Counted from the stretch's first letter, positions 59,609 through 64,000 are shown. The stretch is 64,000 nucleotides of DNA from an uncultured bacterium (GCA_964460785.1 CAYWQB010000004.1:169817-233816); one strand, 5' to 3'. The notes: generated by a model not told the origin, from the letters alone. Program-made: numbers and translations.

Positions 59609-61315
59609 CTAGTTTGTGCTAGAGGCCTGCCTGAGATCTATGGATTTATGAATTTCATCTATAATGATTGAGAATGTCTTTTCAGCAGGACGATGCGGAA
59701 TTTTAGGACAAATCAATATATCACTTTCGGCTATTACAGGTGATAGGTCTTTACGGCTGATATAGGTTCCAAACATAGCGCGCAATAACATCCAAGCTGT
59801 TCCAATTTTTAGCCCTCCATGCTTTTGAGCTGCCTCTTTTAGGTAGTCAATATGCTCTTGCTTGAGAGGTGTAGAAAGCTCTCTTTTACAGAGAGCAAAA
59901 ACCTTTATTTTATGAACATCTAGCATATTGAGTCCAAGTGGGAGGGGCTTATTTTCATTATATGAAACAGCTAGAGTATGAAGGTCATGAAGAGAAATGA
60001 TTTTATGATTACTTATAGCATATAGATTGTTTGTTATAAGCCACTCATAATTAATAGATTCATAGCGCATGACTTTGCCAAGTCGGTCTAGCATATAGCT
60101 TTGCAGGCGCCGTAAGGTCGTTAAACTACCAGGAGGAAAAGCTCTTTTTAGAGCTATTTTGTCTTGGCCATTTATTGAGGTTAAAAATTTTTTAACCTCT
60201 TTTTTATGCTCAGGGGGAGATCCTATGAAGTGTTGTGCAATGATGTGATTTATATTATTTTCTGTGATCTTTCTCGTTTTAACTAATTGTCTGAACTCTT
60301 CTAGAGCACGCTGTAGCTTTGGATCATCAGGGTAGGATGCTTTTTGAAGGTGAGGGCTAAGCTCTCCGGAAGCAATAGTTTTAATCTTCATTTCAGGGGA
60401 GGGAGCATACTCTTCTTTACTCCATGGTTGTCGATTGCTTGCTGTAGTTGAGCTTGAAGAGAGTTGTAAATTTGGATCCACATGGTAGTGAATACAAGAA
60501 GTATCTCGATTGGGAGCTACAGTTTGCCGAAGTAGAATATTTGGAGAAGAAGCTTGGCTGGGCAGGCCATGTATAGCGAGAGCTTGAGCTTCTAGGTGGG
60601 GAGGAGGAGAGGTCATAGAAGGGGAAGAAGTGTTCATAAAAAGGTTAAGTGGGATCAGTACTTGCAGATAGGCTGCTTCAGGGTAAGATGGGTGGCCTGG
60701 GTAGGTGGGTTCTACTCTTCCTGTAAGAGGGTTTGTCTGGGGGCCTAAGGAGACAATGGAATAAAGAGGGGCTTGCTGTAAGCTGTTTTGCTGACTAGGT
60801 CTCGTTTCTATAGGAGAGAAGGCCCTCTGAGGTTGAGGAGGAAAGCTCATTTGAGATACTCTATCTACCGTAGCAGCCTGAGAAGGTATTGAGTGTACCC
60901 CTTGGTGTGCGACAAATGCTTGGGGAGAAACAGTGACAGGCTGAGGAGGAAAGCTCATTTGAGACACTCTGTCTACTGTAGAAGCCTGAGAAAGTATTGA
61001 GTGTGCGCCTTGGTATGCGACAAATGCTTGGGGAGAAGGAAGGAAAAACTGTTGTAATGATACAGGCTCTTCTGAATGTTCAATAGAAGACACTCTTCCA
61101 AGAAGTGTAGGTGGCTCAGAAAAGGTTGTTGGAGGGACGTCTACCTGGTCATATAAACCAAGCAGGTTATTTGTCTCTTGTGTGTCAAGAGGAGGAAGGT
61201 CTGGATATGGGCTGTTACTAGAATTGGGAGAAAAAAAGCCACTATAGGGATCTTCTTGGAAGGGGTTTTGGTAGTAAGAGGGCCTTGGAGAAGAGGTTGT
61301 TGTAGGTGGGAACAT
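59609..61315 (-). CDS. Hypothetical protein, Pro/Ser/Gln-rich N-terminus plus conserved helical HTH-like C-terminal region (family B1)
   Basis: MFPPTT start. Shares SCIHY, TIASG, KASYP, FPP.SLT, YMLDR.GKV and LAVSYNENKPLP with the next ORF. Confidence 0.78.
   Translation of the reverse strand: MFPPTTTSSPRPSYYQNPFQEDPYSGFFSPNSSNSPYPDLPPLDTQETNNLLGLYDQVDVPPTTFSEPPTLLGRVSSIEHSEEPVSLQQFFLPSPQAFVAYQGAHSILSQASTVDRVSQMSFPPQPVTVSPQAFVAHQGVHSIPSQAATVDRVSQMSFPPQPQRAFSPIETRPSQQNSLQQAPLYSIVSLGPQTNPLTGRVEPTYPGHPSYPEAAYLQVLIPLNLFMNTSSPSMTSPPPHLEAQALAIHGLPSQASSPNILLRQTVAPNRDTSCIHYHVDPNLQLSSSSTTASNRQPWSKEEYAPSPEMKIKTIASGELSPHLQKASYPDDPKLQRALEEFRQLVKTRKITENNINHIIAQHFIGSPPEHKKEVKKFLTSINGQDKIALKRAFPPGSLTTLRRLQSYMLDRLGKVMRYESINYEWLITNNLYAISNHKIISLHDLHTLAVSYNENKPLPLGLNMLDVHKIKVFALCKRELSTPLKQEHIDYLKEAAQKHGGLKIGTAWMLLRAMFGTYISRKDLSPVIAESDILICPKIPHRPAEKTFSIIIDEIHKSIDLRQASSTN
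60831..61037 (-). repeat. Intragenic tandem duplication with 108-bp period (36 aa)
   Basis: SPQAFVA(Y/H)QG(A/V)HSI(L/P)SQA(S/A)TVDRVSQMSFPPQP twice. Confidence 0.9.
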
Positions 61316-61420
61316 ATACTGAAGCAGTTGTGCGTTTAGATAGTGATAAGAGGTAACAGTATCATTAATGGATAATTAAGTTAATATTGTTCTTTGTTTT
61401 TCATGCTCTTTAAAAAAGCT

Positions 61421-62728
61421 CTAGACTCTCTGTCGATCGTGAGTTTCTTTATTGAAAATCTCATGGATCACAATCTTTATAGACTGTTCTAGGGTTCGCT
61501 TTCTTTGAGGAGTGTCTTTAAGTATAGGAATACCCTCCCTCCTCATAAGGCGAGGCACATCTGTTCTTTTATGGTCATCAATTCCATATATAGATTGCAG
61601 GATAAGAAGGGCTGTTTTGATCTTAATCCCTCCCTCTCTTTGAGCCACCCTTTTCAAGTGGTCAAGGTGCTTTTTCTCAACCTGAAATGAACGACTACTT
61701 TTACTACATAGCCTTGCAATCTTAATCTTATAAATGTCTCGCTTATGGAGGGTTACAGGTAGGGGCTTATTTTCATTATACGAGACAGCTAAAGCATGTA
61801 AGTCATCAAGGGAAAGCTCTCCTCTTTTGTCATGTAAAGCACATACATTGTGGTGCGCAGTCCAATTAGACTCTATACGCTCTGATGGGTAAACCTTACC
61901 AAATCGATCTAACATATATTGTTGGAGACACCTTCTTGAGGTTAGGCTATCTGGAGGGAAAGATTGCTCGATCTCTTTTTTTTCAAGATCACTGAACCTG
62001 GTAATGGCTCCTCTGATTATGCCCTTTGTTGAAAGGTCTAGAGCCCCTTTAAAGGCATTCTCTATGCTTCGGTCTATACTATGGGCTGTCACTACCTTTC
62101 TTTTTACAACTTGCCTGAGTTCTGCGAGTACTTGTTGCAGTCCTGGGTTGTTTGGATAGGAGGCTTTGGGAATATGGGAAGGAAGGGTGCCAGAAGCTAT
62201 GGTAGCAATTTTAAATTCATCAGAAGGGATGTGAGCATCAGAGCGCCAGGGATTGGATCTATTTTTACTAGTAGTATGTGAAGAAGATGTCCAAGCTGAA
62301 TCAATGCGGTAGTGAATACAAGACGTACTTTCAGCAGAAGGTGGCATTTGCAGGTCTTTAAAAGAGGGGTCAAAGGGTTCTGAGTAGCTTGCAAAAGGCC
62401 TCTCTAGGGGAGCTGATGTATCGGTAGCACCTTGAGAGGGCATAATAGGGATTGATGATAGCATATCAGCTTCAGAGATGGGAATACGGGAGACCCTTCC
62501 ATAAAGGGAATCCTTAGGAGGCTCTGGATCTTGGAGGGTAGGCTGTAGAGAGGGGGTTATAGGAGGGAACTCAAAAAAATTAGTGAGCTCTTCTAAGGAA
62601 AAGTCTTCTATGTAAGAACTGTCTTGATGAGCTGAATGAGAAGGAAACTGCTGCTGTGTAGGAGCTATGTAGGGTTGTAGTGAAGAGGTGGTGGCTATAA
62701 GTGGAGAACTTGTTGTGGGAGGAAACAT
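61421..62728 (-). CDS. Hypothetical protein, family B2 (paralogue of B1)
   Basis: MFPPTT start and the same conserved C-terminal blocks. Confidence 0.78.
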   Translation of the reverse strand: MFPPTTSSPLIATTSSLQPYIAPTQQQFPSHSAHQDSSYIEDFSLEELTNFFEFPPITPSLQPTLQDPEPPKDSLYGRVSRIPISEADMLSSIPIMPSQGATDTSAPLERPFASYSEPFDPSFKDLQMPPSAESTSCIHYRIDSAWTSSSHTTSKNRSNPWRSDAHIPSDEFKIATIASGTLPSHIPKASYPNNPGLQQVLAELRQVVKRKVVTAHSIDRSIENAFKGALDLSTKGIIRGAITRFSDLEKKEIEQSFPPDSLTSRRCLQQYMLDRFGKVYPSERIESNWTAHHNVCALHDKRGELSLDDLHALAVSYNENKPLPVTLHKRDIYKIKIARLCSKSSRSFQVEKKHLDHLKRVAQREGGIKIKTALLILQSIYGIDDHKRTDVPRLMRREGIPILKDTPQRKRTLEQSIKIVIHEIFNKETHDRQRV

Positions 62729-62865: not shown

Positions 62866-63168
62866 ATGGGTCATGTAGAGGGGGCTGTAGTGATTGAGCT
62901 TAAAAAAGCAGTACTTGTCCCTACGTTTACCTTAAGTGAGATCGCTCTTTTTCAATTAAGCAATCAGGATTATAGCGCCTATTTCTTGAGCGTGGGGGAT
63001 TCCTTCGTTACACACACCTATAAGAAGAATAGACTGCTCTTTGCCCCTGCATTTTCTTTGAATTACTACCACCGGTCAGGTATGGAAATGGGACTTAATT
63101 ATCAGCTACAGCAAAATGGAAATTACAAAGGGCAGCAGGTAGGAGCAGACCTTAAGTGGAAGTTCTAG
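62866..63168 (+). pseudogene. Remnant C-terminus of an autotransporter / outer-membrane beta-barrel gene
   Basis: Alternating amphipathic strands ending YQLQ.NG.Y..QQVG.DLKWKF (terminal Phe). Only 100 aa, with no signal peptide or passenger. Confidence 0.55.
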
Positions 63169-63218
63169 AGTTTGTTATGCATAGAGGAATAAAATATCTA
63201 GCTTATTAGCACCTAGCG

Positions 63219-64000
63219 TTAAGGTTTTACTAGCGGTATTTCCTCTATCTGCCTTCTTTCTATACCTTCAAGAACGTTAGCTACCAAGTGCATAGAAAAT
63301 CCTTTTTGAGGCCTTGTATTCAAGCGGTTTTTAATGGGGATAGCATGCTCTTCCATGATTTGCTTCACCTTCGCTCGCATATAGGTGATACCAAAGACAG
63401 CTCGCATGAGAAGAGTCGCAGCCTTAACAGACAAAGCATCATTGTCACTTGCGATCTTCTTTAATCTCCCAATTATTTCAGGAGTGATCTCATTAGCAGG
63501 GCTCGCTTGGTGGCAATACCTTAGAACTTTGACTTTTTCAAGGTCTGAAAGGCTTTTCCCTTGAGGGGGAGGTAAGTTGAAGTTGTAGGCATTAGCAATA
63601 TTAATAAGGTCTTGAAGTGATGGTTCTGGAGGACCTGACAGTACTGTTAGATGGTTTTGGAGGATCCAATCGTCATCAATGCCTTCTGCGGGAATAATTT
63701 TTCCAAATTGACTCAGCATGAATTGCTGTACATATCGTGTAGTAGTTAGGTGGCTAGAAGGAAATGTTCTTTTGATAATATCTTTTTGAGCGACATTGAT
63801 TTTATAGAGGGCTTTGCGAGCTTCTTCAGAAAGGTTAAGGGACTTGAGATCTTCTCTGGTAACTTTGCGGTTTCTAAGAATGTTCGTGAGTTGATCTACA
63901 AATTCCAAAGGCTGGTCTTCCTTAGGTTCCTTGAAAGGAAAAGGAGCCATATAAGCAACACCGTGGAGCAGCCTCTCAGGAGAAGGTAAAAGTCTTGTGC
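63219..64000 (-). CDS. Hypothetical protein, family B3, 5'-truncated by the window edge
   Basis: FPSSHLTTTRYVQQFMLSQFGKI and ANAYN.N.P.P match B1/B2. The frame has no stop between 63950 and 64000 (..LLPSPERLLHGVAY-M, matching YAPSPEMKIKTIAS in B1). Confidence 0.78.
   Translation of the reverse strand, partial: TRLLPSPERLLHGVAYMAPFPFKEPKEDQPLEFVDQLTNILRNRKVTREDLKSLNLSEEARKALYKINVAQKDIIKRTFPSSHLTTTRYVQQFMLSQFGKIIPAEGIDDDWILQNHLTVLSGPPEPSLQDLINIANAYNFNLPPPQGKSLSDLEKVKVLRYCHQASPANEITPEIIGRLKKIASDNDALSVKAATLLMRAVFGITYMRAKVKQIMEEHAIPIKNRLNTRPQKGFSMHLVANVLEGIERRQIEEIPLVKP

Follow-up and report, generated by a model that had tools for sequence, protein, structure and literature searches.

A private, expanded protein family of a chlamydia-like bacterium with paired transposase-type winged helix-turn-helix modules: candidate host-directed effectors

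What kind of protein carries a low-complexity N-terminus in front of what look like the helix-turn-helix (HTH) repeats of a transposase, and on whose DNA, if any, might it act? This question is raised by three genes, here called B1, B2 and B3, lying at the end (positions 59609..64000) of a stretch of 64,000 nucleotides (GCA_964460785.1 CAYWQB010000004.1:169817-233816; hereafter "the window", that is, the whole stretch at its full length) from an uncultured chlamydia-like bacterium. A sequence-only reading of the window had regarded their products as secreted nucleomodulins, in which a domesticated transposase-type DNA-binding module serves to reprogramme host transcription. The analysis reported here revealed that they belong to an expanded family, private to this genome and maintained by selection, at whose core lies a doubled winged HTH of the transposase type devoid of a catalytic domain. 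The N-regions evolve fast, bear repeats, are rich in Pro and Ser and, in most copies, acidic. A nucleomodulin role is plausible but unproven, and represents one of several live readings.

Translation and a six-frame search placed the three co-oriented open reading frames (ORFs) where they had been described and revealed that they are mutual paralogues. All are on the minus strand: B1 (59609..61315) codes for 568 amino acids (aa) and matches the hidden Markov model (HMM) of the family with an E value of 1.6e-98, B2 (61421..62728) codes for 435 aa (E 9.9e-104), and B3 (63219..64000) is cut by the end of the window, its start lying 292 bases beyond it; the full B3 gene, of 357 aa, is found at G000:C4:233035-234108, G000 being the genome under study (1.95 Mb in 8 contigs). 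When B3 was used as the query in a six-frame search of its own genome, B1 and B2 were retrieved with E values of 3.1e-27 and 1.5e-25, respectively, along with a fourth co-oriented paralogue of 628 aa located just past the end of the window (E 2.5e-67) and additional matches on two contigs. The strings quoted in the earlier reading, including the MFPPTT starts, IEDFSLEELTNFFEF and LTTTRYVQQFMLSQFGKII, are all present in the translations. Own-genome phmmer and hmmsearch runs brought the family to 11 full paralogues, one of them truncated. Their proteins share 21-49% identity and, therefore, they are not recent copies of a mobile element.

The region that the paralogues have in common is a C-terminal domain of about 250 aa, basic in 9 of the 11 copies (isoelectric point, pI, 9.3-9.8; net charge +6 to +17), which in B1 spans 59612..60397 (-) (262 aa, pI 9.6) and in B2 61424..62221 (-) (266 aa, pI 9.8). 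The sequence of the B2 domain was modelled with AlphaFold2 on a nine-paralogue alignment, from which the truncated copy and one other of the 11 were omitted. The model is confident (predicted local distance difference test, pLDDT, 88.3; predicted template modelling score, pTM, 0.83) and all-helical, with 13 helices and a few short strands, so that the helical C-terminal region of this length proposed earlier finds support. Two units can be recognized within it. In B2, unit 1 (61835..62008, -) corresponds to domain residues 72-129 and is predicted to fold as helix 78-87, strand 92-95, helix 96-107, helix 113-123 and strand 127-129, whereas unit 2 (61517..61684, -; domain residues 180-235) comprises helices 183-196, 201-212 and 221-228; in the model, both units appear as helix, short strand, helix, helix and strand, as a winged HTH would show. 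The corresponding modules, which resemble the winged HTH of IS630-type transposases, lie at 60014..60187 (-) and 59705..59869 (-) in B1, and at 63639..63812 (-) and 63327..63491 (-) in B3. The proteins terminate approximately 30-40 aa after unit 2.

The identity of these units was evaluated by profile-profile comparison (hhalign). A search of 150 additional same-order genomes for HTH_33 provided the comparison set: the domain was found in 28 of them, and 30 loci yielded 25 distinct N-termini of IS630-type transposases. The profile of the whole C-domain gave two separate matches to these N-termini, one embedding unit 2 (score 33.5) and the other unit 1 (score 31.6); in both cases the part matched was the second HTH of the transposases, the one of HTH_33 type. 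Of 100 templates with shuffled columns, none reached the real score (maximum 18.3), and a reversed template scored 12.6. When aligned alone with the HTH_33 part, unit 1 gave P 3.4e-6 (prob 88) and unit 2 P 6.5e-7 (prob 92), while a profile of 24 unit-1-type modules of the genome reached P 6.1e-7; the alignments span 48-52 columns in a single register, that is, the full length of the module. No significant match was obtained with the first HTH of the IS630 transposases (P 0.014-0.1), and the units did not match either region 4 of sigma-70 factors (30 sequences, P 0.0016-0.14) or XRE-type HTH_3 domains (24 sequences, six truncated loci out of 30 being omitted; P 0.035-0.29). Indeed, all the controls with other HTH types remained at P >= 0.0016 and prob <= 16, although the panel was sensitive enough to align sigma-70 region 4 with XRE at P 3.7e-6.

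According to these data, the modules very probably originated from a transposase-type winged HTH, as judged from profile similarity. The earlier reading had claimed a likeness to the HTH of IS630/Tc1-type elements for the second unit; profile comparison and its controls extend this likeness to both. The "two similar units" are real: each aligns in the same register with the same transposase module. The direct similarity between them is weak (P 0.034, or P 0.0036 with the 24 unit-1 modules, again in the same register), and what makes them alike is the match of both to one third profile.

The likeness of both units, and of the family C modules described below, to the IS630-type transposases (PF13592 HTH_33, PF13565 HTH_32) concerns the register of the module over 48-52 columns (P 3e-6 to 2.5e-10) and the predicted layout of helices and short strands. 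There are also differences. The transposases possess a DDE_3 domain and a first HTH, whereas B1-B3 have no DDE_3 domain, no detected first HTH and no match at the Pfam level; moreover, they harbor two HTHs of the second type, about 110 residues apart and embedded amid extra helices, in a C-terminal position behind long variable regions, and the third helix of their unit 1 is acidic, unlike that of the transposase module. DDE_3 gave no Pfam match in B1-B3 and no candidate in a six-frame search of the genome, in agreement with the previous statement that no DDE domain follows. HTH_33 likewise gave 0 matches in the six-frame search and, therefore, the modules survive in this genome only in the proteins described here and below. 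Their exaptation left out the catalytic DDE domain, and the genome retains no such transposase; calling them "domesticated" seems a fair description.

It might be asked whether the genes are simply functionless, decaying relics of IS630-type transposase genes, as their profile similarity to the transposase module and the existence of one truncated copy could suggest. The latter (G000:C4:254301-255179, -; 292 aa) ends after unit 1, has lost the C-terminal half and overlaps the start of the adjoining paralogue by 38 bases, a sign of ongoing gene death within the family. In the other 10 of the 11, the ORF is intact (323-628 aa) and the invariant core residues are kept in spite of the divergence (21-40% identity to B2). 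The confident structural model, the absence of any DDE remnant and the arrangement of the modules, duplicated and C-terminal unlike those of the transposases, also oppose this idea, as does the pattern of substitution: in three pairs of paralogues the nonsynonymous divergence (dN) of the C-domain is 0.42-0.52, far below a synonymous divergence (dS) that exceeds 2 and, being saturated, permits only a qualitative comparison. The relic hypothesis is largely refuted and can be considered very improbable.

The two units are not the only modules of this type in the genome. A 345-aa protein (C4:261568-262605) coded for by a neighbour of one of the paralogues is a tandem array of five units, each about 58 aa long. 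The sum of its modules carries it over the whole-protein Pfam cut-off for HTH_32 (41.4 vs. 33.7 bits), the best single one reaching 21.3 bits, and it also matches Clr5. Iterated own-genome searches gathered 10 such proteins, which we call family C, with 1-10 tandem modules each and 49 in all. Their genes (G000:C1:11233-36161, C4:166384-167646 and C4:258984-262605) lie outside the window but in the same genomic islands as the paralogues. In hhalign comparisons, family C matched the HTH_33 part of the transposases (P 2.5e-10) as well as unit 1 (P 6.3e-7) and unit 2 (P 4.7e-7); 39 of 40 pair shuffles scored <= 16.1, and the remaining one, which scored 130 over four columns, is a numerical artefact. 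The pattern L-S/T..Q...L...[helix]..FG...S...V...L...G is common to the units, to family C and to HTH_33/HTH_32. A search of a family C protein against the PDB sequences gave a single match, at E 0.65, which we attribute to chance. Unit-1-type modules amount to 24 in 18 proteins, some of which bear three or four copies; a distant relative within the window (31013..31843, -; 276 aa) possesses a single one, detected by the unit-1 HMM and by the family HMM (E 4.5e-5), and belongs to no Pfam family. Altogether, this module type is the building block of at least 27 proteins, one of which bears both kinds.

Outside this genome the family seems to vanish. When the C-domain profile was compared with 1.84 billion representative proteins, 13 matches were obtained, 12 of which are this genome's own proteins, as established by a letter-for-letter check. 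The thirteenth, P0011 (3367 aa), was considered as an outside relative and rejected, being an unrelated, repetitive surface-type protein matched over a 44-residue stretch. A word-indexed protein search with the C-domain of B2 retrieved B2 itself only, and a profile search of the PDB sequences with the C-domain gave 0 matches at E 10. In the other same-order genomes, single-protein queries retrieved no counterpart, whether B3 was searched in 40 of them or a family C protein in 149; G000 is the sole representative of its family-level group among the genomes compared. The family is thus seen in one genome only and, on these searches, appears to be lineage-restricted.

One possible role for such modules would be a bacterial one: the proteins might be DNA-binding regulators, nucleoid proteins or silencers derived from transposase repressors, acting on the bacterium's own chromosome and never secreted. 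HTH modules of this kind normally function within the bacterial cell, the charge of the C-domain is basic, the order commonly harbors IS630-type elements (HTH_33 in 28 of the 150 other genomes), and the secretion of the proteins is in itself a matter of interpretation. We nevertheless regard this possibility as unlikely: it is unusual for a bacterial regulator to have a Pro/Ser-rich, repeat-bearing N-region, here as long as 367 aa; at least 27 copies are harbored by a 1.95-Mb genome, with no orthologue in the 40 (B3) or 149 (family C) genomes of the order mentioned above; no cognate insertion sequence (IS) or DDE gene remains to be regulated; and the genes are not organized in operons but have as neighbours Ank, LRR, kinase and Ulp1 genes of a eukaryote-like kind.

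This last point deserves some attention. The paralogues are concentrated in two islands (C4:226-272 kb and C1:5-54 kb), in which Ank-repeat, LRR_6, Fic and five protein-kinase genes are present. B1 is adjoined by two tandem paralogous genes coding for Ulp1-like proteins (window 57435-58565, +, and 58597-59601, +; Peptidase_C48 E 1.8e-11 and 5.1e-12), which by their sequence look like effectors of the deubiquitinase/deSUMOylase type. The genome harbors two FHIPEP (SctV/FlhA) genes above the cut-off, one injectisome-type and one flagellar-type, and the TLC family of nucleotide transporters (NTT) is matched four times. By analogy, this gene neighbourhood fits secreted effectors, being of the kind where environmental chlamydiae keep host-directed ones; the setting is effector-like, with Ulp1/C48, YopT-like, Ank, LRR, kinase and Fic genes nearby. 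No signal peptide of the Sec type or transmembrane stretch was detected in any protein of the family (maximum 19-aa hydropathy <= 1.59), and the first 25 residues of B1 and B2 are rich in Ser, Thr and Pro. Taken as a whole, sequence and context lead us to lean slightly towards the idea that these proteins are secreted, host-directed effectors.

Their N-regions vary in length from 60 to 367 aa among the 11 paralogues. Pro accounts for 11-17% of their residues (background 4.5%), and Pro, Ser, Thr and Gln together for 27-46% (background 22%), so that the Pro/Ser/Gln-rich N-termini anticipated from B1 and B2 turn out to be a property of the family. The pI is 4.7-6.2 in 10 of the 11 copies; composition and pI thus bear out the proposed build of an acidic, Pro/Ser-rich N-region followed by a basic, HTH-bearing C-domain. 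The N-region of B1 (60398..61315, -; 306 aa, 15% Pro, 15% Ser, pI 5.2, net charge -10) embeds a tandem repeat of 108 bp in 1.9 copies (60830..61037, no strand assigned), corresponding to a 36-aa repeat, while the 628-aa neighbour exhibits an 87-bp repeat in 3.5 copies and an Asn run. The N-region of B2 (62222..62728, -) has 169 aa, a pI of 4.7 and a net charge of -10. Acidic-aromatic patches, which had been claimed for both B1 and B2, were recognized by a simple rule in 5 of the 11 N-regions; B2 is among them, with two patches, but that of B1 missed the rule's 12-residue criterion. In two of the three pairs of paralogues, the dN of the N-region exceeds that of the C-domain.

The reading that we favour, as a tentative but serious candidate, is that of an expanded, lineage-restricted group of soluble proteins exported by the injectisome, whose C-domain would bind nucleic acid of the host and whose N-region would alter transcription. 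In this mechanism, the proteins would pass through the injectisome into the eukaryotic host as part of an effector arsenal evolving by gene birth and death. There, the C-domain might bind nucleic acid, most likely DNA, and the acidic N-region might recruit host factors, with altered transcription as the outcome. The third helix of an HTH is usually the recognition helix. In unit 2 this helix is basic, as in the transposase module, and because of this recognition-helix-like character unit 2 would probably represent the main contact; in unit 1 it is acidic (P-x-E-x-I...W), and for this reason unit 1 is more likely to be a scaffold or a partner-binding site. Host-directed secretion and action on host DNA are separate issues, and the second one, in which DNA would be bound and host transcription altered, appears possible but doubtful when judged from sequence features.

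Several observations weigh against the favoured mechanism. The hhalign probabilities of the units (79-92%) are good but not decisive, and they derive from a panel of four template types. Pfam (E 0.1) and NCBIfam returned nothing for B1-B3, and Pfam assigned no HTH family to nine C-domains even at E 10. ESM feature look-alikes included clusters of HTH_33, HTH_32, HTH_28, HTH_29 and HTH_21, with scores of 0.79-0.82 that shuffled proteins often reach. The acidic third helix of unit 1 is conserved in most copies and would be unusual for DNA recognition. A simple pattern scan found no K-K/R-x-K/R motif in B1-B3 (0 of 3). As for the N-regions, their disorder rests on composition; crude measures (TOP-IDP, charge-hydropathy) are equivocal, and the charge-hydropathy boundary places only 3 of the 11 among disordered sequences. 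Finally, the mean net charge of the family C modules is only +0.56. Concerning nuclear localization signals (NLSs), one or two K-K/R-x-K/R motifs are present in 4 of the 11 members, and no cluster of at least 5 K/R in 7 residues was found in any of the 11, by a crude scan that is blind to non-classical signals.

Some of these same features could be accounted for if the proteins were secreted effectors whose modules no longer bind DNA, the C-domain serving as a helical scaffold for host proteins or RNA and the N-region carrying linear motifs that hijack the host machinery. The effector-like context and the lineage restriction would be the same; the acidity of unit 1, the lack of an NLS motif in B1-B3 and the nearly neutral average charge of the family C modules would be expected, and Pro-rich, repeat-bearing N-regions suit carriers of linear motifs. 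What makes us consider this explanation rather unlikely is the strongly basic character of the C-domain in 9 of the 11 copies, together with the basic third helix that unit 2 shares with the transposase module.

A more ambitious version of the favoured, DNA-binding mechanism can also be imagined, in which the whole set of at least 27 proteins, bearing 1 to 10 IS630 winged HTH modules with variable recognition helices, would constitute a modular kit for targeting host DNA, delivered by the injectisome to the nucleus of a protist. We consider it quite improbable at present.

The fate of the transposase module in this bacterium has well-known eukaryotic parallels. The paired domain of Pax proteins, CENP-B and the Pipsqueak repeats bind DNA in eukaryotes and go back to transposases of the Tc1/mariner or pogo type; they followed the same route, in that the HTH of the transposase was kept after the loss of the catalytic domain, sometimes in tandem, but they are genes of the eukaryotic host. 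On the bacterial side, the TAL effectors of Xanthomonas are DNA-binding regulators acting inside a eukaryotic host through tandem modules, which are repeats of 33-35 aa and not HTHs, and Wmk of the Wolbachia prophage WO is a putative transcriptional regulator with HTH domains likewise thought to act in the host. The HTH domains of Wmk are XRE-type, a type that the present units do not match. For both the TAL effectors and Wmk, the likeness to the present family would be one of function, and no sequence relation is expected.

A working analogy in design is offered by the Nop proteins of rhizobia and by HsvG/HsvB from Pantoea agglomerans. In these type III effectors the tyrosine-recombinase core-binding domain, present as a single or as several tandem "SU1" modules, is joined to regions resembling activation domains (PMC13667924, PMC7819608). 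The design they share with B1-B3 and with the tandem family C is that of an effector reusing the DNA-binding module of a mobile element. The module itself is different, a recombinase core-binding domain rather than a transposase winged HTH, and so are the bacteria and the hosts. HsvG/HsvB and the Nop proteins have predicted NLSs, and DNA binding and activation have been demonstrated for HsvG/HsvB, whereas in B1-B3 no NLS pattern was found, and DNA binding and activation are putative. In addition, no OTU or ULP domain is fused to the C-terminus of B1-B3, though Ulp1-like genes adjoin them.

Within the chlamydiae, the comparison is with NEX1/2 and PEX1/2 of Neochlamydia and Protochlamydia, described as lineage-specific, clustered effector families with host-directed domains and a birth-and-death mode of evolution; in the members tested, a surrogate assay detected a signal for type III secretion (PMC4209131). 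They are like the present family in size, lineage restriction and clustering, but they carry F-box, BTB, RING/U-box, LRR and TPR domains, and that paper never mentions "helix-turn-helix", "transposase" or "DNA-binding" (PMC4209131). A search of open-access full text, with supplements outside its scope, found no description of an effector family derived from a transposase HTH in chlamydiae or elsewhere. The family and its module thus appear to be new within known themes, namely the expansion of chlamydial effectors and the reuse of DNA-binding parts of mobile elements by effectors.

One paper counts only one effector family as known to target DNA directly (PMC5570926), and a 2026 paper reports two effector families shown to directly activate host transcription (PMC13667924). 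If the proteins studied here were injected and bound host DNA, they would represent a new structural solution among the few effectors that touch host DNA directly, and obligate intracellular bacteria would have recycled the DNA-binding part of their own IS elements as a host-directed tool, mirroring the transposase-derived factors of eukaryotes. If the modular kit existed, effectors with programmable or combinatorial DNA binding would have been invented independently a third time, the TAL effectors and the recombinase-module HsvG/Nop proteins being the other two cases, and the kit would be the first directly DNA-binding effector family in Chlamydiota. Function aside, a family seen in one genome only accounts for approximately 1.5% of the genes (on a rough estimate of about 1,700), and a confident model with clear domain borders is at hand for experiments.

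The surroundings of the paralogues include other genes that can be briefly mentioned. The 490-bp gap between B2 and B3 (window 62729-63218) contains a 100-aa ORF (62866-63168, +) ending in ...KWKF, which by eye resembles the C-terminus of an outer-membrane barrel and may be a gene fragment. Upstream of the Ulp1-like pair, a 996-aa ORF (window 53834-56824, +) exhibits at its C-terminus a sub-threshold match to YopT/C58-type proteases (E 0.0045 and 0.0074); it is convergent with a 147-aa ORF coding for an acidic product (window 56829-57272, -; pI 5.2), which might be a chaperone. The kinase/Ank/LRR region of the islands (G000:C4:265744-269045 and C1:48541-54166) comprises five eukaryote-type Ser/Thr kinase genes, several Ank genes, RI-type LRR genes and a Fic gene.

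Two further loci lie farther away in the window. At 9596-17102 (+), a gene coding for a 1890-aa RHS-repeat protein is followed by three ORFs of about 200 aa without a Pfam family, a layout that resembles the polymorphic-toxin and immunity arrangement, here in a chlamydia-like genome. At 35481-38997 (+), a DabB-like (Proton_antipo_M) gene is paired with a DabA gene (E 5.8e-185); the two might form an inorganic-carbon pump, which would be unexpected for an obligate intracellular bacterium.

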